Shown here piece by piece: positions 9,901-36,826 of a stretch of DNA of 64,000 nucleotides; positions within the stretch are counted from its first letter, which is position 1, and each line of letters starts with the position of its first letter. The translations under genes and the position numbers were made by a program. Under the pieces are notes generated by a model that was given only the letters and a program-made list of their open reading frames with translations, ran no database searches and was not told where the DNA came from. Source of the stretch: Euglena gracilis (lineage: Eukaryota); NCBI GenBank assembly GCA_039621445.1, contig CP154954.1, positions 13,930,387-13,994,386 of the forward strand, read 5' to 3'.

Positions 9901-12900
9901 TCCGCGCCGTTTTTGCGGGCCTGAATGGTGAGACAACCACCCTGGGAGCCAGCCCAGCTGGGGGTTGCTTGCCAGAGACCGACTGGTGCTCTTTTTCCGC
10001 CAGCCGCATGGCTACATGATAGCGCCCGGCGATGGTTTGCCACCATTGATTTGCATCCACCCAGTCAACAGTTTGAAGATGGCCACCCAATTGCCCACCA
10101 ACAGTTCACGGTGACAAAAACAAAGGGGAATCCATGACATATTAACCACTGATAACGGGGGGGGGTGTGCCAAATCTTCAAGAACTGTCGCTAACCACTG
10201 GGAGGTTGCCGTTCAATTCTGGGTGGTCCTCCTGATAGTGTGTGGGGTTCGGCGGTGAGCCAAGCGTCAGATTAGGCGTTACTGCCACCAAGAGCTGACA
10301 CCCACACCAGTGTGCCCCCCCCCCCTCGAATAGAAGCCCTCTCCCCAAATCTCCCAAAAATAGGCCCTCTGGGCCCTCCCCCCCCCAAAAACCAAATGAC
10401 AGCCCTCCCCCCCACTGGCCCAGCACTTTCGACCAAACACTGCCCAAAATTGAGAGGAAATCTGCAAAATAGGTATATTCCAGAAAAAAAATTGATATCT
10501 GTCATCCTTGGACCATCCGCCATCCACCCATAGCATCAAAAGTCACGTTTTCGACCTTTTTTTTTTACTTTCAGACGCCGTTCGATCCCCGGACCACCCT
10601 CAGCTGCCTTTTGGCCGAAGTCAAACAAAGGTACCCAAATAGAAGCCGTCCCCCATTGTGACCGAATATTAGCCCCAGGGGATTCTAATGGGGGGGCCGT
10701 TCATACTGCCGCCATGTGGGGAGGTGTGTGCAGCAACAAACAGTACCCGATCCCCCCCCTTGTCCACCGACCACCCCTGAGTACCGACCACCCCCTTGTC
10801 GGGAGTTGCAGGGGGTGCATACGACCCCCCCCCCGGTTGAAGGTTGTGGGTAACCTGGGAAAACAGGAGTTTTTTTGGCACCCGCACACAAACACACACA
10901 CACACACACACATATGCAGAACACAGCGTTAGCATATTCCTAAACTTGCTGTAATTAAATGAATGCGACAGATACCCCTTCAACAGAGTGCCGGCATTCA
11001 ATGCTGCGGGGGCTGTACCCGTAGCAACAGCTTGGGTCGGGGGTATGGTACAGACGGGGGTGGGGCTGGCACAAATGACTGAGAACTGAGGAATGGCCCA
11101 AGTCGCCCAACCCCTCACCCGACCCCCCACCCCCCACATCAGGGGTTGCAAGTCAGATGATGCTTATGAGCCCCCTGGTCGGGGGTTGTTGGAACTCGGT
11201 CGGTGGGCACGGGGGGGGGGGGTTCCACAAAGCCAAAATGTTTTGGGCGCAGTGGGTTGGGGTGGTTGACCTTCCGAAGGCCATTGCTGCAGTGGGGTGG
11301 AGCAACTTCTGCAGAATTTTTTTGTTTGATTGTTTCCATGTGCCAAGAAAGAAGGGCGATATCACCACAACAGGTTTCCTTTGGTAGGCAGATGTTTGCA
11401 ATTGCAGCAGCAGTTGCAGTTTCTATTGGCTGGAAAGGTGTCCAGCGTTGCGGCCTCTTTTGCCTCATTTGGCCGGGCGGGGTTTGACCCCCTGAGACAC
11501 CGCCGCTCCCAGCCTCCCACGGGAAGTATTTCAGCCATAGCGACGTGGACGCGCGCTACATCAACCCGCTGCTGCACCCCCCGAACATCTCCGCCTACAG
11601 CCTGTGGACTTGCCTGCAGAGCAAGGCTTCACTTAAAACCTGTGTGAAAACCTGTGTGACCACGGCCCCAGGGGGGGAGGTCGGTTTTCGAGGGTTGGTG
11701 GGTGGGTTGGGGCCTTGGGACCCCCCCCCCCAGGGGTGGGATACACCTGGGTCAGGTTATTCCCCTGCTGAAGGCTGGACCGGATATTTTTTTTCAGCGG
11801 TTTCGATTTTGGCTGGATTTTGGGTGGGTGGTTGGTTGACCCCCGGGGGCGGGGGAGTCGTGGGTGGGTTTTCAAAAAAAATGGGTGGGTGGGTTTGGGC
11901 CCGGGGAAAAGCCCCCCCCCCCCCTCTGGGGTCACTAAGTGATTCCATGCTGTAGAGCAACGACGCCCTCATCGCCTTCGCCTGCCAGCAGCTGTACGGC
12001 AAGTACCAGGCAGGGGAAGGGCTCGCATCCTTATTTCAAAAGCACCCAAGCGCAGGGTCCATCCACCCCTGCAACAAAAGGAACAACTTCACCACACATG
12101 GCGTGCTAAGAATCCGGCCACACACTTTCACCGAATCTTCAACAAGAACTTCTTTTACCCGTCAAGAAGGGGTGAGGTGGCTGAGGTGGGCATCTGGCTG
12201 GGAAGAGTTTGCAGCTGGACAATGGCTTAGCCTTGGGCTCAGATCCAGCATATCTGGTCTCCACTCAGGGATTTTTTTTTAGTCTTGGACCCGGGGGGGG
12301 GAGTAGGGTGGGTGGATCCGGCCGAGATTTTTGGCATATTCCGCGAGTTTTCGACCATTTTTGAGGAAAATTGAGTGGGTCCCCCGGGATCCCCGCCCGG
12401 TCTGAAGAAATCCCCTGTCTCCACTGTGTTGATTGAACCGCCTTTGGGTCTTGGGTTAAAAGCCCTGCGAAACGAAAAACCATTTACTTTCCTAACAAAT
12501 ATACCGCCCACCCTCGGGAAACTATCATGTTGAGAAATTATCAAGGTCTGCGGTACCGGCTGACAGTGGCCTGGAGGTTGGGGGGTGCTTGAATGGAAAG
12601 AAAGGCACTTCCTCTGCTGCCAATCATGGACAGCCATCCCCGAGATGAACCAGGAGCTGGTGCTGGCGGGCCAGCGGTACTGGGTGGCCACCGGCTACAG
12701 CTCCGGCGATCGGGCCGGTGATGGCCGGATGACTGGCTGGACGGCCTAGCGGAACCAGCGGTGGCGGGGCAGAGAGGGGTCGCAACGGAAGTGCTGCCCT
12801 CCAGGGCAGCTCACCGACGTATGGACGTGTGTACGTGCAACAAATGTGCAAAAAAAAAAGGACGATCGTTGCTGGCTGGGCCGACTCAGTCTGTTTCTTT

Positions 12901-15782
12901 CTGCAAAGAATTATGATGAAGAATATCGGGCTTCAACTGAGAGCCAAACATCTCATTATCCAAAATTTCTGACGCCGCCAAAGTCCTGTATTTCAATGTC
13001 CCCTCCCCAATAAGGCCCGGGGCTCATTTTTGCATCCGTTGCTGGAAACCTCCAGGGGGCGTATTGTTATTTTCCGGGCCCGAAAAACATCCCTTTTTGG
13101 GTTTCAAATATACACCAAAATTTCACCTGCGGCGCTTCGCACCATGTACGCAGTGGCAGAAATTGAGATTCACGTGGTTTTCTGCTCTCAAAATCACAAT
13201 TTTCGTCATTTTTGTGCCTATACTCCAGGATTTTGGTAATTTTTTTCAGGGACGTTTTCTCCGTCTCCAGCTCTTTGCTTTTAACGTTGTGAAGGGTCTT
13301 ATTTTTGGGTTTTTGCCAATCGACCCAGGGAAGATTTTTTTGGGAGCGGGGGGTTTATTGGAACGTGGTCTTATTTTTGGAGGGGTTTTCATATCCATCT
13401 CCCCGATGAAATTGTCATGCCTCTGTTGGAAATGGTCGACCAGTCATTTTCAGGATTTGTCAGGGTCGGCATTCGTCGACCTGTCAGGAGACAGTTGTAC
13501 CATATAGGTATGTATGCACACATACATATAATATCAAGTGTATGTATGTCTATGAACATGTAGACAGCAATTGGGCAAAACGAACCGGACACTCTTCCTC
13601 AAAAAATACCCACAAAATCTCTAGGGGGCAATCTCTCGTTTACTGTCCAACCCACTCAAAACTCCAGCAAAACGGAAATTGGTTGCCTGGGAGCCATCCC
13701 CAAGAGAGGGGTGGAGGGGTGGCTTCTGGCGGTTCAATTTCTTGACTCGTCGCCGGCGAAAGTTGGACCCCCACCAAAAAAGACCCACTGATTGAATCCC
13801 GGCTGAATCTGCAAGTATGTATTTTCTGCCTTGTGCTCTCGATCTAAATTTCATTTTGCATGATTGCTGCCAAGTAAAACCCCCCAATTAGAAGCCCCCC
13901 GGGGCTACTATTTGGTCACTCTGCGGAAAACCTGGGGGGAGGGCTTCTGACTGGGTACCCTTTGACTAAAGGAAAAACATTCGGCCGGTGGCCGATCCGG
14001 GGATCGAATGGGGTCCAAATTGAACAATTTGCAAGCCGTATTTTTTCGAGTTTTGTGTGGATAGGCCATGTTTCAAGGACACCAGATGTCAGTTTTGTTC
14101 CCGATGTCGACCTGTTTTTGTGGAGATCGAGGTTTACACTATTTTTCGGAATTTTTTTCGTCAACTTTGTCTGCCGGCTTCGTCGGAGAGTGGGGGGGGC
14201 TGTTGTTTGGATTTTTGGTGGGAAACCCGAGGGGGGGGGCTTCTATTTGGGGGGGGGGGCTTTTAATTGGGGGGTTTTATGCCATCAGATGGTTTCCATT
14301 TCCGGCCCCGGCCCGGCCGCACCCTGCAGTGCACGGTGCTGATGCTGAAGTGCCGGGCGTCGGTGATGGGCAGCATCGACGCCAGCAACGCCTACGTGGA
14401 CCAGTCTGTGTCGGACAAGAAGGGGGTCACAGCCGGGGTGTTTGGACACTGGAGTTTGGGTCCCGGGCCCAAGCAGAATGATGACATATTTTGAGTAACC
14501 TTCCTTGGCGCTTTTTGTTAAAGTGCAGTGTTTTTGACGTTGACACACCTCATGTGCCAACAGCACATTGCGTTGCAGTTCCTTGGACAGCGGGGAAGCT
14601 AGTTGGTCACAGGTGGTTAGGTATCTGAACTGCTGTGTTTCAACATTTGGTTTGTGATTGTTCACAGGGGTTTCAAGTGTTTCCACCACGTGTTGCATTT
14701 CGTGTTTCCATCTTTATTTCTGGGCAGCATTTCTCCGGGGGCGCCTCGTTCAATTTCCCCCCAGAAGAGCTATTGACTGTGCGGGGCACAGGGGTGTGGG
14801 TGAACGTGGTCGACCCTCCGCCGCCGTTCGTCATCCTCGGAGTGGTGAGCGCCGTTGCCGTCCTGCTTCCCCTCAGCGTAGGGTTGTGGCTGGCGACGCG
14901 GCTCTACATGCTTGCACGGGGAAGCAGGGCCTGTCCCTACACCGGTTCATGAAGTGGTCCCCCCCTCAGACTGTCATTCCTGAGATGCCAGAGGTCACTA
15001 CAGGTAGCCTCCAGGCAGCCCCAGGGCGGTCCTCAAGGGACAACCCTTATTATTATTACTTATTTGTTTTTATCTGTATTTTTATCATGTTCAGGACGAC
15101 CCCTTAAGGAGCACCCTTCGGCCAAAGGGTTGGCCAAGGGCCGGACCGAGGTCTGAAAGGGGTCAAAAATTAAAAAGTCGATAATCACAGTTTTTCATCT
15201 TTTGGCTGGTTTGGCGATGGCCCAAGGATGCCAGAAATCGTTTTTTCCCCCTGGCGTCAACCTGTATTCGCCAAGAAACTTCACAGAAAGCCTTTTTGCC
15301 CATTTTCCCGGTGGGTTTTCAGTTGAGTGCCCTGGGCCAGCAGATTGTCTATTTCCATTCTTTGTTTCGTTCGCTTAATGACCGCCCTGGGCAGGCCAGA
15401 GCGTCTGCCTTTTGCTTCTGTTTCCACGGTTTCATTTGTGGTGCTGGTCAGGCCAACGGGGCGGGCCCTGCCCCCGATGGACCGCATCGCGCAGCTGCAG
15501 TTCGCGACCACCGCCCCGCCGCCCACCGTGTTCCGGGAGCTGCACCGCTTCCAGGCCTCCTTCGTCCAGATGGAGCGCGGCCTGCAGGCGTTCGGGAAGT
15601 TCGTGCCGCACGGCGTGGTGAAGGTGCTGGGCAGCCCGGGATTACAATTTGGGAGATGTGCCACGTCTGTTGTTGAATTTCTGTTTTCTTCTTTTCTTCT
15701 GCCACCCCCCCCCCCCGGTTGAAGTGCAGTGTCGCAGATAGACCTGTTGCAGCAAAGCGTGCGCGCTGTGGGTCTCTGAACT

Positions 15783-15845
<63 letters not shown>

Positions 15846-18800
15846 GTGTGCGTGCGTCCGTGCGTGCGTGCGTGCGTGCGCACGTGCGTGCGTGCGCACG
15901 TGCGTGCGTGCGCGCGTGCGTGCGTGCGTGCGTGCGTGTGTGTGTGTGTCTGTCGGTGGGGGGGGTGGGGGGGGTGGGTGTAGTGTGTGCCAGAACCAAG
16001 GACCCTGTCAGTTTCCCGGGCGGGAATCCAACAGGTTCTCAGGCACATGACAATTTCCTCGGGGGGGTTGTCCTGTGTTGTTGGTGTGCAACGTGCTCTG
16101 CTACACACAGACACACAGACACACAACACACATGGCACATAACATATGTGCACACAGGCGTACACACACCTTGCCTGGTGTCATTAGAAGAACTACCTTA
16201 CTTTTCATCTTGTTTGGTTGAAAGTTAATTGGCCAGTAATGGGCGTTAATTTGGGTACTTTTGTGGTCCGGCCCACTGGCAGTTGAAACCAGACTGGGCT
16301 GCAAACCCAGCTGGACTGCACTTTTTTATCCAAAGTTTTGAGGTACACCCCCAAAGCCTCAAAAATGCCATTTTCGGGGGTTTGACCCCGTTTTCCCCCA
16401 ATGTTTTCGGTGCTTTGCACAGTAAATGTTTCGGTTCATCCCGGTTTTGCCAGGCTTACAATAATTATTTTCCCTTGACCCCCCTTGAGGGGGGGGCTGG
16501 CTGGGAGCTGCTGGCCGGATCTGGGAGATGCTGGCTGGCTGAACCCAAGGGTTAGGGTCCCTTCCAGCTTGAGAAATAATGATTTCAGCCCACTGGATGG
16601 AAGAACTTGCTGGCTGGATAGAAGATGCTGGCTGGACCCAGCCAAAGTCGCCAAGTGTAAAACAGGAAAATTGCCTCTCTTTGCTGGGGTGTCTCTTGGC
16701 CCACACTCGCCAAACTGGTCTTACAGCGGGTTAGCCTCCCACACCGCCAATTTGGCCGAAGCCAACATCCTGGGGAGGTATGCATGCCACCCCCCTCCCC
16801 CTGGCTTGTTGCCCAAGCCAGAACTGCCACAGTCAGTCAGTGGGGTGACTCTTTGGCCTCATACTGCCACAGGCCGTTGGAGCTGATTAACCCAAAGTTC
16901 CCCCACCTGGCTTCTGGTGCCAACATGCCGAGCAGTATGTGGTTCTTCTCACCCAGTGAACTCAAGGCAAATGCCATTGAAGGCTCTCCGAACATGTGTA
17001 ACCTTGCCAGGATTTTAGGGAAGCCCTTCGGTATTGAGGTGGGTGATTGGGGGGAGGCCCGACGATCCCCCCCGGGGGATAAGGTGAAGGAAGGGGGTCT
17101 GGACCACCCCACACCAGATGTCGGGAGGGGGGTCCGGACCCCCACCCCCTCCTCAGCAGGTTTCAAAAATTGCGAAATTTTTGTTTCCAGCGCACAGCAC
17201 CGGAAAACGAGCAAAAAAAAAAAAACGCCCCTGTTCCTCACTTTTGAGCATATTGCCCATTTTTTTTGATGGTTTGGTGTTTTCCACATAAATGTTTCAA
17301 ATTTCATAAATTTCAAAAAATGAGCATTTTTGGATTCATTTTCAAAGAAAAATCAGGGGTTCTTTGAACAATCTTGGCCAATTTCCTTTGCCCGTCCTTT
17401 GCCCTTTGCCCGTCCATGAAACCGAAGGTTTTCCAGGCCCATGTGAGTTTCGAGGTAGGAGGGGAGGGGTCCGCCCCCCCCCCCCCCTCAAGGCTTCCCA
17501 TCTTTTCCTGGACAGCCCCCCCCCCTGAGGCTGATTTCTAAGGCAAGGCCAACCCCCCACCCCCGGAGCCATCCTGGTCAGGCACTCCAAAGCACCCAGG
17601 TTCCCCCCGGAGCCATCCTGGTCAGGCACTCCAAAGCACCCAGATTCCACCTCTGGGGGGGGGTACATGGCTAAAATTGCTTTGGGCACCAGTTTTTGGA
17701 TCTGGTTCGCTAATTCTGGCATGATGGTTCGAAGTACCCGGGGGGAGGGGTTCAGCTCGACTGCAGCTGTTCCAAATTTGGCCAGTGGAAACCCCAGTGT
17801 CCCTGGATCCAAGGATTGGAATTTTTTTCCAGTGACTGGCATGAAGTGCTATAAAATTTATTGACCCCAAAACCTGCCAAAATGACCACGTTTGGAGATT
17901 TTCCTATTTTTTTTTGAACAAAATCGGCCAACAAAAACACAGCAAAACCACCTTTTTTTACCTTGGCACGCAGCGCCAGAAGAATTTTTTTCTGGTTGGG
18001 GGGTGACCCCAGACCGCCCTCCCTCCAGGGAAGTGGTGGTCTGCCCCCCCCCCCCCCCGGGAAACTATCATGCCCGAGAACCTGTCAGGGTCCCTCCCGG
18101 GCAGGCACCTACGGCCGACCAGGGCCGACCAGGGCCGACCAGGGCCGACCATGGCCGACCAGGGCCGACTATGGTTTTCAGGACCCCTGTAGGTGGGGGT
18201 TCCGACCAGGGCCGACCAGGGCCGACCAGGGCCGACCAGGGCCGACCAGGGCCGACTTGCATGTGGTTGGCCGACCGAAGGGGAATGGATGAAGGAATTT
18301 GACAGCTTTCCCTCTGGAACAAGCACCTCTGATGATGCTGGGCGATGCAGGGCGATGCTGGGCGATGCTGGGTGATGCTGGATTTTTGGAGACAGAGGTG
18401 GGGTTCCGATGCTGGGCGATGCTTTTTTTTTGGATGGCTGAAGTGGGGTCCATATTTGGGCCTATACTGCTGGGTACACCCTCCCTCCCCCGCAGACCAC
18501 TCCAGCATGCCCTTCATGTCTGCCCATGCCTCTGCCTCTGCTGCCGTGCTGGACCTCTCTGTCCCCCTCCGGGAGGTGTGTGACTCCCCTGGAGCCGAAG
18601 GTATCGTGCCCCTGCTGCATACCTGCGTACAGACTCCACATTGGTGCTTGCTTCGTACCTGAGTCGACGATGTTCCTCCCTGGCTCGTCTGGCCTTCCCT
18701 GAGTGACTCCCTGGAGTGGATGCTTTGGTGGGAGAGGGAGGTTATGGGGGGAATCTTAAGTTGTGGGATAAACGGGCGACTGTAGTTGCGGTTGTAGGCA

Positions 18801-21800
18801 TGTGCATGATCATGTGCATCCGTGGATGCTTGTAGGGCATGTGAATCCGAGAATGCGCATGTGCGCATGTGTAGGGTGCGCATACTGCGCCTTTGGAAGG
18901 ATTGGCATCCAACGAGCCGCGAATTTAATACACAAAGTCGCGAGTTGGATGTCGAGGAAGGTTGGTTGGAGGCCAAGAAGTGGGACCCCCGGGAAGTGTG
19001 ACCCCCAGGTGTGACCTTTGCTGACTAGCCTCTCCTTCAGTGGAGGAAGCTGCGTGGTCGGGAGAAGCACGACTGGCAGTGGTTGCTGCTGCTGGAGAGG
19101 CAGCGGTGGGACCGGCTGGAGGAGCTGCGGGTGCTGGAGGGTGAGGTGGTCGTGTTTGCAGTACCCTTCCAGTGCCCCTGCTGTATTTGTGTGCCTGAAT
19201 TTTGGTCTTCGGTTATAGGGTATTATTGGATGGCTCTAGGGTGATGCAGGGCGATGCAGGGCGATGCAGGGCGATGCGGGGCCCAAAGGGGTGGGTGACC
19301 GAAGGTGCTTGCCAATGGAGGCCTTATGGGGCACTTCCTTTTGATCTTGGCGAGACAATTCAGAAAATCATTGCATCCCTTCACATTTTTTTCTGTGGCG
19401 GATACCCCCACCTATGGCCGACTATTTGCCGACCAGGGCCGACCATGGCCGACCAGGGCCGACCAGGGCCGACCAGGGCCGACCAGGGCCGACCAGAGCA
19501 CCAAAATGGGAAGTGACCATAGGTGCCTGCTCCCGGGAAACTGCCAGGGTCCTTGTTACCAGCCAACTTGTCACGATAGGAAGTTGCCAGGGTCCCCGGC
19601 ACCGGCCAACCTGTCAGGGTCATTTTTTTCATTGATTTCCCCCTGAAATGCCCTACCGGGGGAACTGTCAGGGTCCCGCCCACAAAACTGTGAGGGTCCT
19701 CAGTACCGGCCAACAGGTCATGACAGGAAGTTGTCAGGTGACAGTTTCCCGGGGGGGGGGGATAGGTAGTGCTTTTTCTGGTGTCTGCTGTAAAAGCTAG
19801 CTGGTCTACCCCAGGGTTCGATATAAGGAGGGCGTACATGGTTTAGGTGGGGGGGGTGTCCCCCCCCCCCCCCCCCCCCCTCCTGGCCCGCAGGGGGGGG
19901 GTCCGGACCACCCCCCCCCCCACCTGCAAGGGGGTCCGGACCGACCCTTGGGGGGTTCCCGGGACCCCCCCCCAAAAAAGGGTCAATTTTTTCCTCCGGC
20001 GCTTTGCGCCGAAAATTTTTTGCATTTTTGGCCAATTTTTGCCCCAAAAGTGCCCAAAATGGCACTTTTGGTCGTTTTGGGGGGTCAAAATTTTTCGGTC
20101 ACCCTGACCGCGCCACTGTTTAGGTGGGGGGGGGGGGGGGTGTACGCCCCCCCGCCCCCCCCCCCCCCTGGCCGGCGGGGGGGTCCGAGCCCCCCCCCCC
20201 CCCCCTCCTCTCTTTATATCGAACCCTGGTCTACCCCCTCGGGGTCCTTATGCAACAGCCTTCTGGGCACCCAGCCGGAAGCCCAGAAAAGCCCATTTTT
20301 GGGCATTTTTGACCAGGCAGGCACGACCCCAGGGGGGGTATTGGCTGCCTGCCCAGGCAGCCCGGGGCACCCTGGGGAGGCCGCCCCCCCCCCCCCCCGG
20401 GGCTGTCAAGTTCAGCCTGCCCTCAATAAGGACCATCGCCGGACCTGGTAAGGAGAGTGCTGGAAATTGAACTGAGTCCAAGTCGTCGTCCAGGGGCTGG
20501 CTTCAATCGCTGGCCAAATGAAGGCAAACGATGAAATGCATCCCACGCAGGCCAGCCACCAAACAGCAGGAGTGGAGCACAGGGTTTCCCACTGTGGGCT
20601 GTTCCACCGACGTACCACACACTCATTGTATACCCTATCAATCTAATTACTGTTGCATTTCAGACTTCACTATGTAAGCAAATGTGCGCATGGGCAAGTG
20701 GGTGGGGGGTGCCCATCTTTTCCGGTCCTTAGACGGGGGAGAGTATGCACATAATTTCGTCGCATATGTATCATGAATCCCACAACGTGTAGTTCGCTCC
20801 GCAAAGACCGCAAAGAAAGTGTTCACCCAAGTCAGTTAAGAAACCTGCACTCCAACAAACGTGCTCACCCAGTGTCCAGCATCCTCCTCAACTGCGACCA
20901 ATATGGTGGTGCGGGAGCAATAATCTAAATTATCCAGGAGGGGAAATTGCTTTAACTGGCTGGTGTTACTCACCAAAAAAACAGGTGTATTTTCTTTTGT
21001 AATATGAGTGTACTGCTGAGCTATTATTATTTTTTCATAATGTATATAATTTGGATGACGTCAGTTATTTGAAACAACTCTTCACTTGTAATTTGTGAAT
21101 TTTTTTGTGTGCGCAATTTTGTGTTTCACCGTCCGCAAACAGTTTCAAGGATTTAACTATTGATACGTAACACTCAAAACCGCGCAGAAGGGAGGCAGCC
21201 TGCCCCCAGGATGCTGACAATCATGTTTGCGGACATCGAGGGCTTCTCCACCATCTGTGAGAACGAGTTCCCCGCCGTTCTGGTCTCCGTGTGCACGGAG
21301 TACTTCGAGGCCATGTGCAGTGCCCTGGGTCCCCAATGCCGCCACGGAGCTGCTCGATTTTTTTTTAAAATGGCAATATGCAATAGGCAATATGGGTTGA
21401 AAAAAAAATACCCCCCATTTCCAGGGGTTGGTCAAAGATTATGAAACCACTAAAAAACAATCGCTCACCTCCAGAAAAACCACCCAGTCAGCACCGGGGG
21501 GGGGGTCGTGGGTGAGTGGGTTTTCGAAAAAATTGGTTTTGTGGGTTCAGGCCTGAGAAAAGGTGCCCCCCCCCCCTGGGTCACTAAGTGAATCTATGGT
21601 CACAACCCCCTGGGCCACATTTCTCCTCTACTTTCGGTGCCAACTCATTTTGCGTTCCTTCTGGGAGTTTGGTAACAAATTGTGTGATGCCTTTTTTCCC
21701 GCTCACCTTTCGGAGGCATTCCTTTCCTCTCCGGGCTGGACTCAGCTGTCCAACATCGTAGGACGCAACGGCACCATTGACAAGTTCATTGGTGACTGCA

Positions 21801-24800
21801 TCGGCAGCATTGCAGTGGGTGGTTTTGAAGTTGCGTCTGTTTCAGGGGATCCATCCATTAAATGTTATGTATTTCATGTTTACAGTGATCCCTCAATTTC
21901 CATAATTATCGACATTCATTTTATTCGTTGTCAACAACACTCGTATGCTTCTTTGTACCGGACCATCGATTCACGATCCTGTCGGCCTGCCCTGTGAACA
22001 TGTCACCGCCACGTTCACAGACAAAAATGGCCAGAGGCCAAAGTCACGCCAGGCCGGAAGAAGGGATGAATGGCACGAAGCAAACAGCCACAGTGCAGTG
22101 GCGTTCACTTCCACAGCTACCTACCCCCAGGGAGATTGTCACGCCAAGAACCTGTCAGGGTCCCTGGTCCATGACAGGAATTTGGAGGAAGTTGAGGACC
22201 AAGGGTCCTTGGTCCCGGCAAACTTCAAGGCCCAACCCCGGACATTTTCACGGTCCTGTCAGGTGACAGTTTCCCGAGGGGCATGCCAGATTCCACTGCC
22301 GTGCTGTGCCATGGCGATGTGGAACGCACCGGACCGGCTCCCCAGCCACGAGAGGGACGCCGTGGCGGCGTCGTTGGCGATGCAGGACGCCCAGGGGCTG
22401 TGCCGCGAAGGCAACTCGCGTGCGGGGTGTGGCGGACGGCAGGTGTGCAGTGTGGTGCGCGGTGCACGGTGGTGCGGGGTCTACCCCAGTCACATTGTGG
22501 GCCCCCAGTGTGGCCAGAAGCTGGCCCAGAAACCCATCTCCGGAACAAACTCTCCCCCCCACCCGCCGACCCATTTCTGTTTGCCCGTTTTGCCGGTCCC
22601 TGCCGCTTGCGTCATGGACCTGCATCGGTCGTGGAAGGACCGCGGGCTGCCGGTGCTGAAGTTCCGCGTGGGCATCCACACCGGGGAGTGCCTCGTGGGC
22701 AACTTCGGCCAGGGCCGGTCGCGTGCCTGTCTTCGGTGCCCTCTGTGCCCATTCCCGGTTTGTCAAATCACCCCCATTTCCATCGATGGTTGTATCGTGG
22801 AATGGCATCACCCTTGCTTCCACCCCATGAGCGAGCCTCAGGTGTTCGTGTTCCTCTAATTATGCTCCCCCCGGACCTCCCTAGAGTCAGGCTCCCCCAG
22901 GATTGCAATCTGACAACAGCCTGATTGGCCGGAACGTTGAGACCCTGACACCGAGGACCCGCTGTCGGGGAGGAGTGAAGTGAGCGTTCCTCAAAAACAT
23001 GACAGTTTTGCAGAAACCCGGAGCAGATGCAAGAATCAACCCGTGGACGCAATCACGTGATTGTCCCGAGCTGACAGGATACCACTCTTGCTGCCAATCT
23101 CGGTTTGCATTGGGACTGTTTCCCGCTCGTCTGGCCAACAGCTCCGGCCCTGGGGCCGGCTGCAGCTACCGCGTCAGCTACACCTGCCTGGGCGACGGGG
23201 TGGCCCAGCCCCCTCCTGATTGACCCACTGCTCACCCGCTGTGTGAAGTTGACCTCTGCAACCAAAATAATAGTGGTAAATGGCCAATTTGAATCCATCT
23301 GGCAATCAAGAATTGTCTCCCCCTCCATAAACCATGTAATTGATTCTGGGTCAGAATGAAAAAAAAACCCAAAATGATTATTTGTTGGAGATTTTTGGAG
23401 ATTTTTTTTGTGGCTGTACCCACCCTTTGCCCGACTAAATACCGACCACCCCCCCAGTCGGGGGTTGCAGGTCAGGGGGGTGCGTGACCCTACAGCTCGG
23501 CCCTGGGCGGCGGCCAGCTACGCGTCAGCTACGGGGAGGGGACTGAGCCCCTTTGTAAACAGGTGCATGCTCACCCGCTGTGTATTTGGACGCGTCTCAG
23601 ACCAACAACCATGTGTTCCAACCTCCGCCGACAATGCCGGTAACATAAAAAACGGGCAATGGGCCGGGCCACTCGCATAATGTGTTGGCTTTGGTTGGGG
23701 CCAAAAACACCACGCTTGGGCATGGGGGTGGTGAGGCTTCCACTTGCCCGCTAAATACCGACCTTACCCCCCAGTCACTTAGTCAGGCGGGGGTGTCATT
23801 GACCCTACGGGGATGCGCGGTGCGCGGGCGGGGTGGGCTTTCCGTGTACGCATACCCCAACACACCCCACCCCAACAGTGAACCCCACGGCCGTGATTTG
23901 TGCTTCAGAGTTCTCAATATTGGGTTCCACCTGGATGTAACACTTGTACCATACCCCACCAACCCGACCCCATCTCTGTGGGCACCTTGGTTGGGCAAAA
24001 ACCCGCTAACCGGCCCCCACGCAGCACGCCACCCCCCTCGCCATTAGCCATTTTTTGTGGTGGTGAGGGCCCAAATTTTAAGAGGGTGACACCAGCACGA
24101 AATTTTGGGTCGTTGGGTCCATTTTAAGTGTTTTGACAAAGTGGCGATTTTGAAAACTTATGGCCGTTTTAGTAGGGGTTTTGGAAACACACCCCGCTGG
24201 AACGCCTTGAAATTTTGAAAAAACAGAAAACAGCCGGAGAACACCTGGCCTCCGGAGCCCTGGTTGTTTGGCGATGCTACCGGACCCCCCCTCTGGAGGG
24301 GGGGTGACACGGTGTTGCAGGTGAAGAAGAGGCAACCGCTTAAGCAACCCGCGCATTTTTGAACATCTCAAGAGTCCCGATGTCCAGTGATGGGGGAGGT
24401 GAACACACAGCACTGCCCAAAAGATGCTACAATTTCTGGAAGGGATGTTTTAAGCGGTAAACCGCACAAAACTTGTTCTTGTGAAGGAGAGATGCTGGCC
24501 TTATGGAGGGGACTGGACTGGGAATAAACGTTTTACAAATGAGGTTAGCCGGTTTACCGAGCAAAATCGGGTTTACCGCGTAAAGAAGTGATGGTTCCTC
24601 AGGCGGAAACCCGCGCAGAAGGGTTTCAGAATGAGAACAGTTCGTGTTTGTGGATGACATGTGGAAGCGGGAAGTGGGAACGCGCAGAAACCTCCAGAAG
24701 TCGGCCATCACGTGAAGTTGTTAACCAACAAGTTTGGGGGAGAGGGAGGAGGACTTTGTGGCGTTATTGAACGATCGCAGTGGGCGGTTATCCGCCTACT

Positions 24801-27800
24801 TCGCTTTTGCTTTGCACGGGTTTCCGCGCAGATGTGGTTTGGGCGGAAACCCGCGTGGAGCTTGTTGCTGTCCTGGTGGGTTGTGTTTTGTGATGTTTTG
24901 GTGTCCCGAAGTGTCGGTGTCGGTGGTCGGTGTCGGCGGCACAATGTTTGGAAGTTGGGCGGGACAGGTTGAAAGGGAGCTGTGGCTGCTGCGCCGTGAC
25001 AGCAAGCACCCGAGCACGCGGAAACCCGCCTGGCATTTGAGCAGGAGGTGGACACCCTCCTCTGCAATTCGGACGCAGTAATGTTCCCCCTGGCCAGTGG
25101 TGAAGGGGTGGCTGCAGGGACAGCAGTGGAACGCACGTGTCAGTTGCCAGGCCGGGTGAGCTGCGGTAGAGAAGATGTTTTGTTACTGTCCCGAAAAACG
25201 GCCAAAAAACTGAGGTTGATTTCTCAGGAGGAACAAAAGCACCTCCCAGGGCCCTCCACTTGGAACCCAACGGTGTTGGTGGCCCAAAATCAGGGTTTGG
25301 GGAAGGCCGACGAAGAAGTGATTCAAGATAGGGACGGAGAAACGCCTGTTTCAGCAGCTGGTGGCAGCCATCGAAAAAATTTGGGTGGTTTTGGGAAGGA
25401 GTCCTCCAAGTTCTGAAAAATTCAAGGCCATTGTAATTGTTTTTTGAAAGAGTTTTACAGCATGTTTCCTTTGAAAAGCTGCAGTTTTTGCTGAAATTCA
25501 GACAGAATACCCAAACCACCTCTTTTTTTCTGGCTCTTCCTCCTTCGGGGTCGGCAACATGCAACGGTGGTCTCGACCGTCAGAAGCCGTGTGGGAGGGG
25601 GGGTAAACCACCAGAAGGCGGTCGTTCTCAACCAACGCCGGGTCGATGTTTGACCCGCTGCATTTGGCTTCCATCCATGTAACCACTCTCAACGCAAGTG
25701 TATCCGGTCCTTTTGGAAACCACCTCTGCTCTGAGTGCCCAAGTTTAAGGGCTGCCCATCTCTCCTTGTTTGGTCAAACCCTGCTGGTGCAATCTCCTCT
25801 CCCTGGTTTCCATAAACCTTCACCCCTCAAACTCACCACAACACGCCAGACACCATTCAGTTGCAAACTGCCTGGCAGCCTGGCAACAAAGTCTGTCGTC
25901 CGTGTACTCCGCAAAGATTCACCCCTTTGACTGGTGTCACAAGTAGGGTTGCAAAACTTTGCCAACAAACCGGCAGACTTCATTTCTAGGGTGGCTTCCT
26001 GGCTGGTCTTTTTGGTTTGTGTTGGTTTGCGTGGATTGTGGTGGTGGGTGGTTTGAGGTTTGTTTGGGGCTTTGGAACAAATGCTGTGCTTTTTCTGCCC
26101 ACCCTTAACCCGGCCACACGGATTCCCGCTTACACCCAGTCGCCTTACACTCGCCACGTATACACACACAGAAAACGGATTCCCTCCTACCAATCATCAA
26201 CTGTTTGTGTCATTGTACGTGGTAATCCGCGTACCATTCTTTGTTTTCACTTTTAGGTGGTAATCCGCGTACAAGTGCATTGTGCGCGGATATCCGCCTA
26301 AACACTTAACTCTGTTGTCTGTCACCTCTTCTTTCGTTTCACGCGGTTTTCCGCGCACACTTGTATTATCCATTTGTTTCTCAGATACTGTTATTAACAT
26401 AAACCAACACACAGCCCCCATGACACACCCATTCAAAGTCAGTGTTTTTCAACTCATTTCAAACAGTTCTAGTACACTCCCAAATCACACAATTCACACG
26501 CAATCGTAAATCGGTTAAGCGGAATACCGCGCAAAACCATTTTCATAAAATTTTGGCTCAAAGCCGCCACACACCCCTCTCAGCCCAAATCTTTGTGCCC
26601 TTTTAGGGGGGTTTCAAAACAGCCAAAAAACGCCCAAAAAACGCAAAAATCGGTTGGGCAATTCGCGCCGCCTAAGTTAGTCACTGGCCGACCCCCCCCC
26701 CCTGGGTGGGTGGCTGGTTTTTCAGAGTAACTGACTGGTTTTGGCCTGGACACCCTCCCCCCCCCGGGGGGGGGTTCGCAAAAAAACCACTAAAGTGACC
26801 CGGCGCCGAAGGTGCCGGACAAAGTTTTGGGCTTTTTTTCCCATGTTTTTTGGTCAAACTTCCTTTGGATTCTAGAGTGGCCGACCCCCCCCCCCCCCAG
26901 GGGGTGGTGACTGACTGGTTTCCCGGAAAAAGTGACTGGCTGGTTTTTCGAAGAGTGGAATGACCCCCCGGGGATCGGTAAAACATTGCATGTTCCTTAC
27001 CTGAGGAAGGGCGCTGCCTCCCAACCTGTCCGCTCGCCTGGAGGCACTCAATAAAAAGTTTGGGGCCAGGGTGCTTCCAGCTGGAGAGCCTCTTCAAAGA
27101 CTTGTCCCATATTGTACCGTCCCTCTCCTGGCCAGACAGCAGGAAATGCACTTGGAAAAACAACCCAATGAAAGATTTGTTTCTGCACAAGATAATTTCC
27201 TGTCAATCGCACATTGTTGCATTATGGGTATCCCAGGGCAGTGCTCATGTGAATATGTGAATGAAAGGAGGCTGGTTATGGGAGCAGGCTTTTGCTTAGT
27301 CGTGTGCCCAGCCCACGTGGGGGGGTGCTAGGGGCAGGCACCCCATCCGACCCCCCCCCCGGGGGGGTCGAGTTTTTGGGGGGTGCCTGCCCATAGCAGG
27401 CACCCCCTCCGACCCCGGCGCCGAAGGGCCCGGAAAATGCCATTTTCAATGAAAAATTTATGGGCCCCCTGGACCCCCCGGAGGGTGTGCCTGCTAGGGG
27501 CAGGCACCATATAGCCCCCCTCCCCCCCCCCCCGGTCGGCCTGAATGGGAGCATAGCCAGTGTCATTTTGCGCTTTACCGCTTACCGCAGAGCCACTACT
27601 ACCCCCCCCCCCCCTATGTCCAATGGCCACCCCCCGGTCAGAGGACACCTTTTCGGAGGTTTGACCAAATTTTTGGTCCCGGCGTGAAGCGCCGGGACCA
27701 AAAATTTTGCCCAAAAATTGGCCAAAGGTTACCGGTCATTGGACATAGGGGGGGGGTAGGGGCTCTGCGTTACCCCCTTTTTGGGACACAGTCTTGTAAG

Positions 27801-31689: not shown

Positions 31690-33475
31690 TACACGCATAC
31701 GTACATGTAGCATATTGCACTCACAGACACATTCAAAAACAAGCACACACATTGCCATGCATTTGGATAATATGTTACGCACCATCATACACTTTTATTT
31801 TCCCTTGTGGGAAGCATGCCTATTTTTTTTTTGACAGGGCAATTCTGCTCGAAATATTTATTTCCTCGCGTAACAAGTTTTTTTTTTAAAAGCGTCATGG
31901 CACGAACTCGCGAAACGTTGCGCACGATTTCGGTAATTTCATCTCTGAGCCATGTGCTTTCCTTCGCTGGGCTTGAGCAACCAACACCAGGTAGGAGTTG
32001 TCCCCGGCCTGCCCCCGGCCAGGTGACCTATCACTGGACACTTGTGGACCGCGCGGTGCTCCTGCAGTCAGCCGAGGGGTACGAGGAGGCGTATGCCGCC
32101 ATGGTGGTTGGCGGCCAGTCTGCTGTGCCGTGCCATGCCGTGCTGTGCCGGCTGGTTTTAATGTGTGCTCTCGCCCAGGTGTCGGATGTTGTGTGTTTCG
32201 GAACTGGATGAACTGGGCCAAATTGTGCCATTCCGATGCCTGATGGAATGCTCTGATGAGATGTTCAGTTGAGACAGCACCCAGGCGACCTAACTTGCAC
32301 TCAATCTGTTTTGCATGCCATTGCGCATGCGCTCAGCATTCACTGTCCTGCAAACCCACCCTTTTGGTTCTTTAGCCCTGTGGCAACTGTTCCTTGTTTT
32401 GTCCAGTTTTAAATCCAATTCCGAAATTCCTTGAAATAGGACAAAACACCCGTGCTCAGTCCCACGTTTTTGTACCCCTCAATATATTTCTGTCCCTCCT
32501 GTGCAAGCCAGGTGAAACTTCTGCCCTTTGTGTTGCTTTGTGAAGTGCTGTGGCATGTATAGGGTTCCTGCCAAGTCATCCAGGGGGTGGACTCTACATC
32601 TACACTGTTCCCCCCCTTGTCTAAGCCCCCCCTCCCCGGTGATGACCCATCTTTTTAAAGGTCATCTTCTCGCGGAGGCTTTTTTTGTGTGCTTTTTTAG
32701 AAAATTTTCTCGAGAGTTTGAAAATTATTGAAACCTCTGAAGCCTGATATGGTGAGACATTGTTGATTTTTGCATCCAAATGCCTGTGAGTGCAACAGTG
32801 GACCTCCAAAATAAGGGTAACCCCCCCCCTAATAGAAGCACGGGGCCGCTACAAGCGCAGGGTCCAAATAAAAGCGCACCCCCCCCCACCGCCGAAGGCG
32901 GCGGTCTGCTACAAGCGCACCCCCCATTTTGATAGGATTTCTAAAGGAAATCAACAAAAATCGCGCAGGTACGGCCCAAATAGAAGCGCACCCGTGCTTC
33001 AATTGGGGGGGGGGGTTAATTTTTCCTTTTTGGTGTGAAGCGCCGGATTTTTTTTTGCAAGTCAAAATTTCCCCCTTGTCCAAGCACCAGCCCCCTGATG
33101 CTTACCAATGTTTTCCAGTGCTTAGACAAGGGGGGGGGTATGCTCCCGATTCTCCGGCACTCCGTGTTTTCAGCTTCTCCCAACTCTGAAATAGCCCGGC
33201 TTGCACGTCTCATTTCCAAGGCACGGCGGTCTGCCGGGGACCAACAACGGGCGCGGCAGCTGCTGGCGGCCAACCCGCTGCTGGACCCGCCGGACAAGAC
33301 GTGGGCCGCCCTGGCTGCCCAGCCAGGGCTTAATGGGAATCCCCGCAACCCTGTGGGTGGTGGGTGGGGGGGGTCGACCCCCCCACCAGGCCTTCCCGCA
33401 CAGCCCTGCGCCCAGCTGGAGCACGCGGAGGCCGGCCGGCCATGGGACGGCGTGTTCTACTTCAAAGAGAAGTGA
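837..33475 (+). CDS. Spliced gene (5' end lies upstream of the window): receptor-type class III adenylyl cyclase, TM-extracellular region-TM-HAMP-cyclase; about 27+ exons, listed separately
   Basis: Exons join in frame to give LTIMFADIEGFS...TEYFEAMCSNIVGRNGTIDKFIGDCIMAMWNAP...FRVGIHTGECLVGNFGCSYRVSYTCLGDGVNLSARLEALNKKFGT...WDGVFYFKEK*. There are two hydrophobic helices (837-887 and 14827-14892) and a HAMP-like segment. Exon structure at 6760-8206 and 29150-32016 is unresolved. Confidence 0.93.
2238..2339 (+). CDS. Adenylyl cyclase exon
   Basis: VSQAIERFDARLTEGEKEMTEVVLMVQGSGVLGY; downstream 12-bp stem CTGGGCACCTGC/GCAGGTGTCCGG (with G-U pairs). Confidence 0.72.
2592..2627 (+). CDS. Adenylyl cyclase micro-exon (probable)
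   Basis: DLRPSQFDIPRL between two paired intron ends; CCTGCAC (2630) pairs with GTGCAGG (5914). Confidence 0.55.
3875..4737. mobile_element. TA-flanked MITE (AAATAA-ACCCC family) with nested element 4028-4512
   Basis: C-run/G-run TIRs; homologous to 44066-45041. Confidence 0.85.
5926..6015 (+). CDS. Adenylyl cyclase exon
   Basis: PFTGQTFTMMQGHRFFSQVSVIGSYLDPTE; 5' end +/-3 nt; 3' intron 6016-6620 is N3-CAG...CTG-N5|A. Confidence 0.75.
6621..6752 (+). CDS. Adenylyl cyclase exon
   Basis: SFFIPTFWVTWVAFYMDFLNNSFGTRTLYSTPLVMAVNEKSSTL; 3' end uncertain. Confidence 0.75.
7289..7341 (+). CDS. Adenylyl cyclase exon (tentative)
   Basis: GDLPGNITQVNQITAKP joins in frame to the 8207 exon via GT(7342)..AG(8206); 5' end uncertain. 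Confidence 0.4.
8207..8289 (+). CDS. Adenylyl cyclase exon
   Basis: LAKWVDGWLTTMAWNRFTGQVELVLRQ; 3' intron 8290-9502 has stem CAGGGGC/GTCCCTG. Confidence 0.8.
9503..9603 (+). CDS. Adenylyl cyclase exon
   Basis: (K)IAAQNGTGIQLTINIGAATISDELRSQLKGFPD; both junctions in frame under the N3/N5 rule. Confidence 0.82.
9977..10023 (+). CDS. Adenylyl cyclase exon
   Basis: DRLVLFFRQPHGYMI(A); flanking stems CAAGC/GCTTG and CGGCG/CGCCG. Confidence 0.82.
11511..11618 (+). CDS. Adenylyl cyclase exon
   Basis: ASHGKYFSHSDVDARYINPLLHPPNISAYSLWTCL(Q); high GC3, in frame at both ends. Confidence 0.85.
11622..11949. mobile_element. MITE with 8-bp TSD that forms nonconventional intron 11619-11954 (introner-like)
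   Basis: Imperfect TIR CAAGGCTTCACTTA / TAAGTGATTCCATG; flanks CTGCAGAG / CTGTAGAG; related sequence at about 21490-21598 and about 61330-61455. Confidence 0.85.
11955..12007 (+). CDS. Adenylyl cyclase exon
   Basis: SNDALIAFACQQLYGKY(Q); 3' stem CAGGGGAAG/CTTCCTCTG. Confidence 0.85.
12266..12417. mobile_element. hAT-like MITE
   Basis: CAGGGATTT...AAATCCCCTG; perfect TSD TCTCCACT. Confidence 0.88.
12622..12707 (+). CDS. Adenylyl cyclase exon
   Basis: SWTAIPEMNQELVLAGQRYWVATGYSSG; 3' stem CGGGCCGG/CCGGCCCG. Confidence 0.85.
13875..14279. mobile_element. TA-flanked MITE
   Basis: TAAAACCCCCCAATTAGAAGCCCCC / GGGGGCTTTTAATTGGGGGGTTTTA. Confidence 0.85.
14321..14430 (+). CDS. Adenylyl cyclase exon
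   Basis: TLQCTVLMLKCRASVMGSIDASNAYVDQSVSDKKGV(T); in frame with neighbours. Confidence 0.85.
14826..14921 (+). CDS. Adenylyl cyclase exon (TM2)
   Basis: FVILGVVSAVAVLLPLSVGLWLATRLYMLAR(G); 13-bp 3' stem CAGGGCCTGTCCC/GGGGCGGGCCCTG. Confidence 0.87.
15022..15389. mobile_element. hAT-like MITE (CAGGGCGGTC family)
   Basis: TIR CAGGGCGGTC/GACCGCCCTG; TSD GGCAGCCC/GGCAGGCC; relatives at 38148-38369, about 33733-34340 and about 43314-43866. Confidence 0.88.
15476..15628 (+). CDS. Adenylyl cyclase exon (HAMP and linker)
   Basis: MDRIAQLQFATTAPPPTVFRELHRFQASFVQMERGLQAFGKFVPHGVVKV(L): HAMP-like E-L..F..M..GL pattern followed by FGKFVP. Confidence 0.9.
15784..15949. repeat. (TG)n/(TGCG)n microsatellite
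   Basis: Directly visible. Confidence 0.97.
18042..19764. mobile_element. C-run GGGAAACTGTCA-family element containing nested insertions
   Basis: TIR CCCCCCGGGAAACT(A/G)TCA / TGACAGTTTCCCGGGGGG; uninterrupted copy at about 34345-34512; fragments near 8820, 16000, 22130, 28850 and 38450. Confidence 0.8.
18102..19529. mobile_element. hAT-like non-autonomous element with (CCGACCAGGG)n subterminal arrays
   Basis: TIR CAGGCACCTA(C/T)GG; perfect TSD CTCCCGGG; empty site visible in the copy at about 34385-34420. Confidence 0.9.
19812..20228. mobile_element. hAT-like MITE
   Basis: TIR CAGGGTTCGATATAA; perfect TSD GTCTACCC. Confidence 0.92.
20505..20544 (+). CDS. Adenylyl cyclase exon
   Basis: IAGQMKANDEMHP; both junctions N3/N5 and in frame. 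Confidence 0.8.
21208..21321 (+). CDS. Adenylyl cyclase exon (catalytic, first metal-binding Asp)
   Basis: RMLTIMFADIEGFSTICENEFPAVLVSVCTEYFEAMCS. Confidence 0.93.
21752..21802 (+). CDS. Adenylyl cyclase exon (catalytic, Lys and second Asp)
   Basis: NIVGRNGTIDKFIGDCI. Confidence 0.93.
22311..22388 (+). CDS. Adenylyl cyclase exon (catalytic)
   Basis: MAMWNAPDRLPSHERDAVAASLAMQD. Confidence 0.92.
22608..22706 (+). CDS. Adenylyl cyclase exon (catalytic)
   Basis: CVMDLHRSWKDRGLPVLKFRVGIHTGECLVGNF. Confidence 0.93.
23158..23202 (+). CDS. Adenylyl cyclase exon (catalytic)
   Basis: GCSYRVSYTCLGDGV; upstream intron has a perfect 10-bp stem CCAGGGCCGG/CCGGCCCTGG. Confidence 0.92.
27023..27063 (+). 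CDS. Adenylyl cyclase exon (catalytic Asn/Arg)
   Basis: NLSARLEALNKKF(G). Confidence 0.92.
27285..27543. mobile_element. hAT-like MITE (GGCAC/GTGCC family)
   Basis: CAGGC...GCCTG; TSD TATGGGAG/AATGGGAG; related to 35171-35453. Confidence 0.8.
27600..27758. mobile_element. TA-flanked MITE (TATGTCCAA family)
   Basis: TIR TA-Cn-TATGTCCAATG; copies at 47403-47733 and 48548-48899, partial copy near 41986. Confidence 0.88.
27956..28049 (+). CDS. Adenylyl cyclase exon
   Basis: TFICVSHSTYEACQHDFHFRRLAKVTVPGKA. Confidence 0.9.
28549..28667 (+). CDS. Adenylyl cyclase exon
   Basis: EVLPVYEVLCEAGCVETRTPKAADLPGTVGIDVQREPVK(P); 3' stem CAATcAGTGTC/GACACTcATTG. Confidence 0.85.
29079..29150 (+). CDS. 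Adenylyl cyclase exon
   Basis: PKERRYSPAQRVSVADGLLLRGP; 3' end uncertain. Confidence 0.68.
30429..30861. mobile_element. TA-flanked MITE (TATAAACCCC family)
   Basis: TAAACCCCACCCCCACTTATA / TATAAGTGGGGGGAGGGGTTTA. Confidence 0.85.
31598..31690. repeat. (ACAG)n microsatellite
   Basis: Directly visible. Confidence 0.93.
32017..32112 (+). CDS. Adenylyl cyclase exon
   Basis: GQVTYHWTLVDRAVLLQSAEGYEEAYAAMVVG; 14-bp 3' stem CAGTCTGCTGTGCC/GGCACGGCGGTCTG. Confidence 0.82.
32818..33018. mobile_element. TA-flanked MITE nested in a TTGTCTAAG-family element (about 32607-33140)
   Basis: The empty site AAGGGTAATTTT in the homologous copy at 38-49 shows the TA duplication; further host copies at 1-210 and about 39822-40215. 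Confidence 0.88.
33239..33320 (+). CDS. Adenylyl cyclase exon
   Basis: DQQRARQLLAANPLLDPPDKTWAALAA(Q). Confidence 0.85.
33324..33408. mobile_element. 85-bp MITE derivative with 8-bp TSD that forms intron 33321-33413 (introner-like)
   Basis: [17 protein letters not shown]; flanks TGCCCAGC / CGCCCAGC; similar to an intergenic element starting at 42986. Confidence 0.82.
33414..33475 (+). CDS. Adenylyl cyclase last exon
   Basis: LEHAEAGRPWDGVFYFKEK*, with TGA at 33473-33475. Confidence 0.87.
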
Positions 33476-34000
33476 GGGAACCGGAAAATTTGGCCCAGGC
33501 TTCGCCAGACTGCTGTCTGATTGGGAAGGGACGCCTCTCCCGTAGAAGTGGAGTAGGGGGGTGGCGAATCCCACCCAGTTTGGACTCCTGGTCGGTTGAA
33601 TACCTTGGCCTGTTTGGGAGTGTCACAGTGTCACAAACAGGGGTGTCCCAGAAAGCCAGGATTCAGTCGGTCGGGATTGGGAAACAAATAGCAGTTCAGG
33701 GCTGGGGCTCTTGGTGATAATCCGCAATTGTCGAGGGTAGTCCGCAAGGGACGGGATTTTTTTTTAAATGGACCCCCCCCCCCGGGCCAAAGGGTTGACC
33801 AAGTGCTGGTCTGGGGCTTGAACGGGGTCGAAAGTGTTCAAATTACTTTTTTTGATGTTTTGGCTGGTTTGGCAAAGGTCTAAGGATGCCAGAAATCAAT
33901 TCCCCCCATGATTTCGACCTGTTTTTGCCGAAAAGTCTTTTTTTTGCCATTTTTTTTTGCCATTTTTCCTTTGTGGATTTTCAGTTGAATGTGCTGGGGC

Positions 34001-36647: not shown

Positions 36648-36826
36648 TGTATTGTATTGTATTGTATTGTATTGTATTTTATTGTATTGTATTGTGTTGT
36701 GTTGTGTTGTGTTGTGTTGTATTGTGTTGTATTGTATTGTATTGTATTGTATTGTATTGTATTGTATTGTATTGTATTGTATTGTATTGTATTGTATTGT
36801 ATTGTATTGTATTGTATTGTATTGTA
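36648..36826. repeat. (ATTGT)n pentanucleotide satellite
   Basis: Directly visible. Confidence 0.97.

Follow-up and report, generated by a model that had tools for sequence, protein, structure and literature searches.

Probable origin of a nonconventional intron in a Euglena gracilis adenylyl cyclase gene from an inserted inverted-repeat element

Introduction

How does an intron come to lie in the middle of a continuous exon, and why should the cuts that remove it fall 3 nt before its terminal stem and 5 nt after it? These questions are raised by a 336-nt nonconventional intron in a receptor-type adenylyl cyclase gene of Euglena gracilis. The gene lies in a 64,000-nt stretch of assembly GCA_039621445.1 (contig CP154954.1, positions 13,930,387 to 13,994,386, forward strand); this whole stretch is called the window, and all coordinates are window positions. 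Where euglenid nonconventional introns come from, and why they follow the 3 nt/5 nt geometry, has yet to be explained. For the intron studied here (11619-11954, the focal intron), the probable answer is that an element with terminal inverted repeats (TIRs) was inserted into a continuous cyclase exon with an 8-bp duplication of its target and is seamlessly removed by the 3/5 rule.

Parts of this idea are in print, going by the accessible text of the papers cited here. An origin of euglenid nonconventional introns from MITEs (miniature inverted-repeat transposable elements) was proposed in 2013, in a paper stating that transposable elements had not yet been identified in euglenid genomes (PMC3935182), and a 2024 review drew repeats resembling target-site duplications (TSDs) together with TIRs at +4 to +6 and -8 to -6; it also describes the introns as excised as circles and, by current belief, non-spliceosomal (PMC11282704). 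Knock-in tests in an EgGSL2 exon have yielded a splicing code with a strict 3-nt donor spacer and a 5-nt acceptor spacer that tolerates +1; the same study terms the CAG/CTG motif ‘relatively weakly conserved’ and finds 84.4% of introns in E. agilis to be slidable (PMC12501133). A recently gained, strain-specific intron in E. agilis gapC has eight-nucleotide direct repeats, interpreted as break repair (PMC4770533). The DNA transposons on record for E. gracilis, Merlin F1 and F2, make 8-bp duplications, and Merlin ends conserve a terminal GG (PMC8101967). With the MITE origin, the TSD-like repeats and the 8-nt repeat at a recently gained intron already published, what appears to be new here is the link of 3 + 5 to 8 and the free MITE families. 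Our literature search found no paper on Euglena MITE families, on a hAT link or on 3 + 5 equalling the duplication length, with the reservation that figures and supplements may hold relevant data.

Results

The host gene occupies about 830-33472 of the window on the + strand (~33 kb), with at least 25 introns and exons of 15-153 nt. Its transcript protein, P0002 (EukProt Euglena gracilis record EG_transcript_7248; adenylyl/guanylyl cyclase domain PF00211), was aligned exon by exon over 885-23172, and the paralogues P0005 and P0003 extended the alignment to 33472. The 20 introns checked by spliced alignment against P0002 are called verified. A gene model with these 20, the focal intron included, gave 591 aa with no stop, and 584/591 residues equalled P0002, a match that marks the source as E. 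gracilis itself or something very closely related to it. Over the focal site P0002 reads ...LWTCLQSNDALIA... (TCLQSND uninterrupted), so the focal interruption is removed from the mRNA. Excision of 11619-11954 restores CTG CA|G AGC AAC. Two RNA-type contigs of 286 nt each (X15 record 9 and X16 record 18; their RNA nature is a guess) carry window 11510-11617 as letters 12-119; since this stretch ends mid-record, both leave the genome at 11617. Depth in the raw RNA run was <1 over the focal locus. The parts of the locus, all on the + strand, are these.

11511-11618, +: upstream exon, …ASHGKYFSH…LWTCL-Q, placed by spliced alignment to P0002 and by the RNA-type contigs; start slidable by 1 nt, end slidable from 11617 to 11624
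11614-11621, +: upstream direct-repeat copy CTGCAGAG; in the 3/5 register, 5 nt exonic and then 3 nt intronic
11619-11954, +: nonconventional intron in the 3 nt/5 nt register, 336 nt, with P0002 continuous over the site
11622-11949, +: inserted element, 328 bp, rich in G-runs and C-runs, with no protein match
11622-11635, +: 5' TIR CAAGGCTTCACTTA, complementary to 11936-11949 at 11/14 positions
11936-11949, +: 3' TIR TAAGTGATTCCATG, pairing with 11622-11635
11950-11957, +: downstream direct-repeat copy CTGTAGAG; 5 nt intronic, including the sole mismatch, and then 3 nt exonic
11955-12007, +: downstream exon, Q-SNDALIAFACQQLYGKY-Q, placed by spliced alignment to P0002

An initial annotation, made from the letters of the window, had described a 328-bp element between CTGCAGAG and CTGTAGAG (7/8 identity) with imperfect TIRs, a single TSD mismatch in the intronic part and a frame that closes when 11619-11954 is taken out. 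Direct reading confirmed the coordinates and strings, the 11/14 complementarity of CAAGGCTTCACTTA and TAAGTGATTCCATG and the place of the mismatch within 11950-11954, and the gene model agrees with the predicted frame. The full flanking repeat is 11 nt long at 10/11 identity (CTGcAGAGCAA / CTGtAGAGCAA), and 3 nt of it reach into the insert.

The mRNA would be identical for eight junction positions (exon end 11617 to 11624), so RNA cannot prove the 3 + 5 register or an exact 8-nt duplication at the focal intron. None of the eight equivalent junctions has GT/GC-AG ends, and the geometry of the sliding junction is compatible with a 3-nt donor spacer and a 5-nt acceptor spacer. In the 3/5 register, 9 of the first 12 positions of the terminal stem pair. 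At +4 to +6 and -8 to -6 the focal letters are CAA and ATG rather than CAG and CTG, and two of the three pairs form. The intron ends were paired in both the minimum-free-energy and centroid folds, with an ordinary whole-fold energy (z = 0.5). CTGCAG and CTGTAG (11614-11619 and 11950-11955) are nearly palindromic, so that in the predicted fold the flank copies pair and lengthen the terminal stem into the exons.

The insert has the anatomy of a MITE in being small (328 bp) and non-coding, with 11/14 TIRs and flanks matching at 7/8 where an 8-bp duplication would place them, subject to the caveat that the flanking repeat runs 3 nt into its 5' end. Among the TIR-like partners listed for its 3' end within 8 kb upstream, only 11622 combined 11/14 ends with a 7/8 flank. 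A protein search with the downstream read-through open reading frame (ORF) gave no match.

A paralogue shows the exon without this intron. P0004, a 134-aa ORF called on six Logan contigs (longest 2299 nt), matches the paralogue transcript P0005 at 100% identity in residues 287-339. It extends into the non-coding sequence of both flanking introns, yet is continuous at TCLQ|S, and shows homology, in its downstream tail, to what is read through in the window's next intron. Being unspliced on both sides and continuous at the focal site, it indicates that the paralogue's unspliced locus (EG_transcript_1461) keeps the neighbouring introns and lacks the focal one, which is the intron-less site that the initial annotation had suggested looking for.

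The register was then read across the gene. All 20 verified introns are nonconventional, none with a GT/GC-AG option, and each has one junction choice at which the stem starts at +4, giving a donor spacer of 3 nt throughout. The acceptor spacer is 5 nt in 16 of them and 6 nt in the other four (976|2240, 6752|7304, 7381|8205 and 21321|21752; the RNA joint at 7381|8205 cannot slide). This agrees with the published 3/5 code and its +1 tolerance (PMC12501133). The stem starts with CA in 12/20. Short repeats make 11/20 slidable, a perfect 7-nt slide occurring in the focal intron only.

The 8 nt before each stem were compared with the 8 nt after it, against mismatched or shuffled pairings. The focal intron scored 7/8, a value reached by 0/380 mismatched pairs of intron ends; a maximum of at least 7 in permutations of the 20 introns had p = 0.049. 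Scores of at least 6/8 were found in 2/20 verified introns (p = 0.03) and in 4/25 when predicted introns were added (p = 0.001), the five added C-terminal introns having been placed by paralogue alignment and best stem, not by the gene's own mRNA. As a separate observation, a candidate 1111-nt intron at 32123-33233 has flanks GTCTGCTG / GTCTGCCG (7/8) in the 3/5 register and a stem that starts with TG, not CA; its junction comes from the best stem only and gives five residues more than the paralogues have.

Elements of the same design also occur free in the window. The window was scanned for inverted repeats, and flank identity was scored at 17 offsets, of which offset 0 corresponds to an 8-bp duplication. 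With every end type taken together, offset 0 did not stand out as a peak (19 vs 11-29 at the others). Pairs with CAG...CTG ends (n = 613) included eight with flanks of at least 7/8 at offset 0, five of them perfect; the 16 other offsets together gave 16, and 20 Markov simulations together gave 2. A second scan setting returned 8/1250 pairs (six perfect); in 10 simulations the number of perfect flank matches was zero. No other end triplet had a comparable count at offset 0, low-complexity words (ATA/TAT microsatellites, G-, C- and T-runs) aside. The union of the two settings comprises nine elements of 85-1428 bp whose 8-bp flanks are perfect in six and whose sequence beyond the 8-mer is unrelated. 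One of the nine (33324-33408) lies in cyclase coding sequence and is described below; the others are as follows.

15022-15389: 368-bp element, CAGGGCGGTCC ends, flanks GGCAGCCC / GGCAGGCC (7/8), inside intron 14922-15475
18102-19529: 1428-bp element, CAGGCACCTA… ends, perfect 8-bp duplication CTCCCGGG, in a dispersed repeat inside intron 15629-20504
19812-20228: 417-bp element, 12/12 ends (CAGGGTTCGATA), perfect 8-bp duplication GTCTACCC
34001-34300: 300-bp element, perfect duplication GCTGGGGC
35171-35453: 283-bp element, CAGGCTTTTTTT ends (12/12), flanks CGGAGAAC / CGGGGAAC (7/8)
38148-38369: 222-bp element, end type as at 15022-15389, perfect duplication CTGAGTGC
44560-44822: 263-bp element, CAGGCTTCTTTT ends (12/12), perfect duplication ATCCGGGC
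52458-52605: 148-bp member of the 34001-34300 family, perfect duplication GTCCAGAA, unlike that of 34001-34300

The element at 18102-19529 has an empty site at the DNA level, since the paralogous sites 34372-34432 and 38437-38497 carry the 8-mer once. The elements at 34001-34300 and 52458-52605 are 88% identical over ~135 bp, and neighbouring CAG...CTG families occur as copies with both ends and their own duplication at different loci. Three of the nine elements are inside cyclase introns, and so those three are not at intron-defining positions. Continuity of the ORF over ‘healed’ sites was uninformative in the GC-rich DNA of the window.

Summed depth in the DNA run was ~200,000-330,000 over 17673-20340, against ~30-60 at single-copy stretches, which fits very high copy numbers, microsatellites and C-runs contributing to the depth. 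Side by side with this, 17673-20340 and 23676-27000 both lie at a DNA-run depth of ~20,000-330,000 and are high in RNA-type contigs too; they are very high-copy repeats inside introns. A further element, of 915 bp, lies at 58658-59572. Its ends are 12/12 (CAGGGTTTCCCA), with (AAGTACGAAT)n arrays close to each of them, and it is flanked by a perfect 7-nt repeat, CATAACT, which becomes 8 nt if the element's last G is counted with the flank. Diverged fragments (70-81%) of the CAGGC and CAGGGCGGTCC element families, with no recognisable ends, are present at 27285-27539 and 33785-34003.

The ninth element is embedded in an exon of the same cyclase gene.

33321-33413, +: predicted 93-nt nonconventional intron, consisting of an 85-bp CAGGGCT…AGCCCTG element (33324-33408) plus 8 nt

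Its flanks, TGCCCAGC / CGCCCAGC, match at 7/8 in the exact 3/5 register, the mismatch again lies in the intronic copy, and the repeat is bounded exactly at the inverted repeat. The paralogues are continuous at this site (AAQ|LEH). The segment is in frame without a stop, so its splicing is predicted rather than shown.

The focal insert itself has three relatives in the window.

21494-21598, +: 3' fragment of the insert family, 78% identity over 108 bp, equivalent to insert positions 222-328 and ending …ATG
58322-58339, -: solitary terminus resembling the 5' TIR at 15/18 positions, with no partner
61310-61455, +: diverged colinear match to the insert interior, with termini not shared and approximate boundaries

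The first of these, which the initial annotation had placed at about 21490-21598, is a genuine copy. It sits in intron 21322-21751 of the cyclase gene without a 5' partner or flanking repeat. Similarity to it ends exactly at the last base of the insert, which fixes the 3' boundary of the insert and argues for a defined element end. A reading of this copy as a complete short element, with a 5' end at ~21433, was unsupported by global alignment and had flanks matching at 1/8. A metagenome scan with the shared 3' end motif returned a single contig (L001) with a 24-nt match only, about what chance would give, and was dropped. In the DNA run the depth bin 11670-12336 stood at 2730, vs ~50-290 in most neighbouring bins; the genome carries repeats of some part of the focal insert or of the intron that follows.

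Discussion

The sequence of events we favour for the focal intron is simple. A 328-bp non-coding TIR element would have entered one continuous cyclase exon and duplicated the 8-bp target CTGCAGAG. In the pre-mRNA the ends of the element would pair, a CAG/CTG stem being what the ends of this transposon class would supply, and the nonconventional machinery would cut at distances of 3 nt upstream and 5 nt downstream of the terminal stem. These distances add up to the length of the duplication, so that the element would be taken out together with exactly one of the two duplicated copies and the coding sequence would return to its original state; with symmetric ends and a direct duplication, the orientation of the element would be irrelevant. 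Free CAG...CTG elements landing in an exon in either orientation would in that case already satisfy the published splicing code. We infer that the insert moved by transposition, that its duplication was exactly 8 bp and that the 3/5 sum is owed to the duplication length.

Several results weigh against this account. The focal junction can slide from -1 to +6, 3 nt more than an 8-bp duplication predicts; a length of 8 nt follows from taking the ends as symmetric, and the letters allow lengths of 8 to 11 nt. Its CAA...ATG ends place an A-A mismatch at +6/-8. The joint 11617>11954 is absent among the RNA-contig joints listed (15/594), and P0004 could stem from partly spliced RNA instead of DNA. 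Across the 20 verified introns the mean 8-mer identity was 2.5 against a null of 2.44 (p = 0.45), showing no general excess. The four 6-nt acceptor spacers would not cancel an 8-bp duplication without later change; they are compatible with one on the assumption that the spacer gained a base afterwards, given that the published +1 variant yielded a functional transcript (PMC12501133). A Pfam scan of 10 long window ORFs matched in 0/10 and thus revealed no transposase, and a protein search with the insert's 111-aa ORF returned no protein at E <= 0.001 and no further copies. Partners sought for the 3'-type ends at 21598 and 58339 were not found, and in the 64-kb window the 328-bp family is represented by fragments only, with no second full-length copy bearing its own duplication.

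In the light of these points the initial annotation needs trimming in several places. Its 8-bp TSD stands as a 7/8 match at offset 0, within a repeat of 11 nt (10/11) that makes 8 one reading and not the sole one. The 3/5 register that it extended to the whole gene applies to 16/20 verified introns, the remaining 4/20 using a 6-nt acceptor spacer, and the excess of 8-bp repeats it expected at this register does not appear as an average over the gene. The insert has the anatomy of a TIR element with a duplication, as was said of it; as a MITE family it is known from fragments, and its own ends read CAA...ATG. To call it caught in the act was too strong, the ends and the duplication having already diverged.

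The most viable of the other explanations, though an unlikely one, is double-strand-break repair with no transposase involved: filling-in of a staggered break in the exon would have left the direct repeat, and a fragment of dispersed repeat would have been captured, its pairing ends being present at the time or acquired later. The eight-nucleotide repeats in E. agilis gapC have been explained in this way (PMC4770533), and the explanation would accommodate both a focal repeat that, at 11 nt with a single mismatch, exceeds a fixed length of 8 and an insert family that is found elsewhere as fragments only. It fits less well with an insert whose ends are inverted repeats (11/14) and with two independent copies that have their terminal letters in common, suggestive of a defined element end and not of a random piece. 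Moreover, window elements with analogous ends make duplications of exactly 8 bp, one of them with an empty site, and in the second exon-embedded element the repeat stops exactly where the inverted repeat begins.

A transposon of another superfamily is quite improbable; here a Merlin element, or one that duplicates 9-11 bp, would have been inserted and the match to 3 + 5 would be incidental. E. gracilis Merlin F1 and F2 do make 8-bp duplications (PMC8101967), the focal repeat allows a length of up to 11 nt, and the alignment of the interior relative at ~61310 may begin at GGCTTC, not CAA. The terminal GG of Merlin (PMC8101967) is nevertheless at odds with the CA start of the insert and of all nine elements, and the offset scan peaks at 8 only. 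Very improbable, finally, is an old intron that predates the paralogue split and was lost in the paralogue, its flank repeat and inverted ends being a coincidence plus an ordinary stem: the focal terminal stem is no better than those of the gene's other introns and slidable introns are common anyway, both in this gene (11/20) and in E. agilis (84.4%; PMC12501133), but no null pair of 380 reached 7/8, the perfect 7-nt slide occurs in 1/20 verified introns, a family relative has exactly the same 3' end, and P0004 keeps both neighbours, which makes the precise loss of a single intron less economical.

Insertion of a transposable element with an 8-bp duplication can be compared with known systems. 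Like the euglenid nonconventional introns described so far (Milanowski et al. 2014, 2016; PNAS 2025 code), the focal intron has no GT/GC-AG ends, a stem from +4 to -6, spacers that can be read as 3/5 and a slidable junction. It differs from them in having CAA/ATG rather than CAG/CTG, a longer (14-nt) inverted repeat and near-intact 8-mer flanks, and also in having a window relative with a common end and a paralogue without the intron. Intron 4 of gapC in E. agilis ACOI 323 resembles it in being nonconventional, absent from close relatives and bounded by eight-nucleotide junction repeats (PMC4770533). That intron is, however, a strain polymorphism, and the accessible text reports neither a family of elements or of inverted repeats nor any connection with the 3/5 spacers (PMC4770533).

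In introners (Micromonas, Aureococcus, dinoflagellates and others), likewise, a DNA transposon lands in an exon and the duplication makes its removal from RNA seamless (PMC11282704). The spliceosome excises introners at GT-AG or variant sites to which the duplication contributes, whereas the cuts at the focal intron are measured from the stem; with no GT/GC-AG option there, element and duplication do not build GT-AG-type sites. With hAT-type MITEs the window elements share an 8-bp duplication, short TIRs starting with CA, small non-coding bodies and family copies with different duplications; the difference is that no transposase or autonomous partner was seen in the window. The 8-bp duplication, clear for the nine CAG...CTG elements and readable as 8-11 nt at the focal intron, is consistent with hAT, an assignment that these letters would suggest solely through duplication length and end letters. 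The initial annotation's view of hAT-like MITEs as generators thus gains from the free CAG...CTG elements with 8-bp duplications, including some at non-intron-defining positions, and its ‘hAT’ is unsupported beyond those two features. Merlin elements share the 8-bp duplication with the window elements and conserve a terminal GG, in place of which the insert and the nine elements begin with CA.

To the MITE proposal the window adds free families whose end letters are those of the splicing motif and whose duplications measure exactly 8 bp, an empty site being demonstrable for one of them. It also adds two exon-embedded elements in one gene with the duplication visible in the 3 + 5 register, together with a paralogue that lacks one of them. 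What was a hypothesis in words thereby takes a quantitative form, in which the spacers sum to the duplication length. A tentative and rather doubtful extension is that nonconventional splicing as a whole may be an RNA-level precise-excision system matched to the CAG...CTG/8-bp transposon class, with most or all such introns being decayed insertions and the 3/5 geometry a fossil of the duplication length. On this view, exactly one duplication copy would stay in the mRNA and exactly one in the circle formed by the excised intron. Were this true, it would explain how at least 70% of a genome's introns could arise without the spliceosome.

Other features of the window

Between 21317 and 21770 the RNA-type contigs make many alternative joints whose sides are separated by 12-25 foreign letters; these look like cyclase-paralogue transcripts placed on conserved catalytic-domain exons. 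Pentanucleotide arrays are present at 55998-57120 and 36636-36845; they comprise (TATAC)n, which with its complement forms a 1.1-kb near-palindrome, and also (ATTGT)n.

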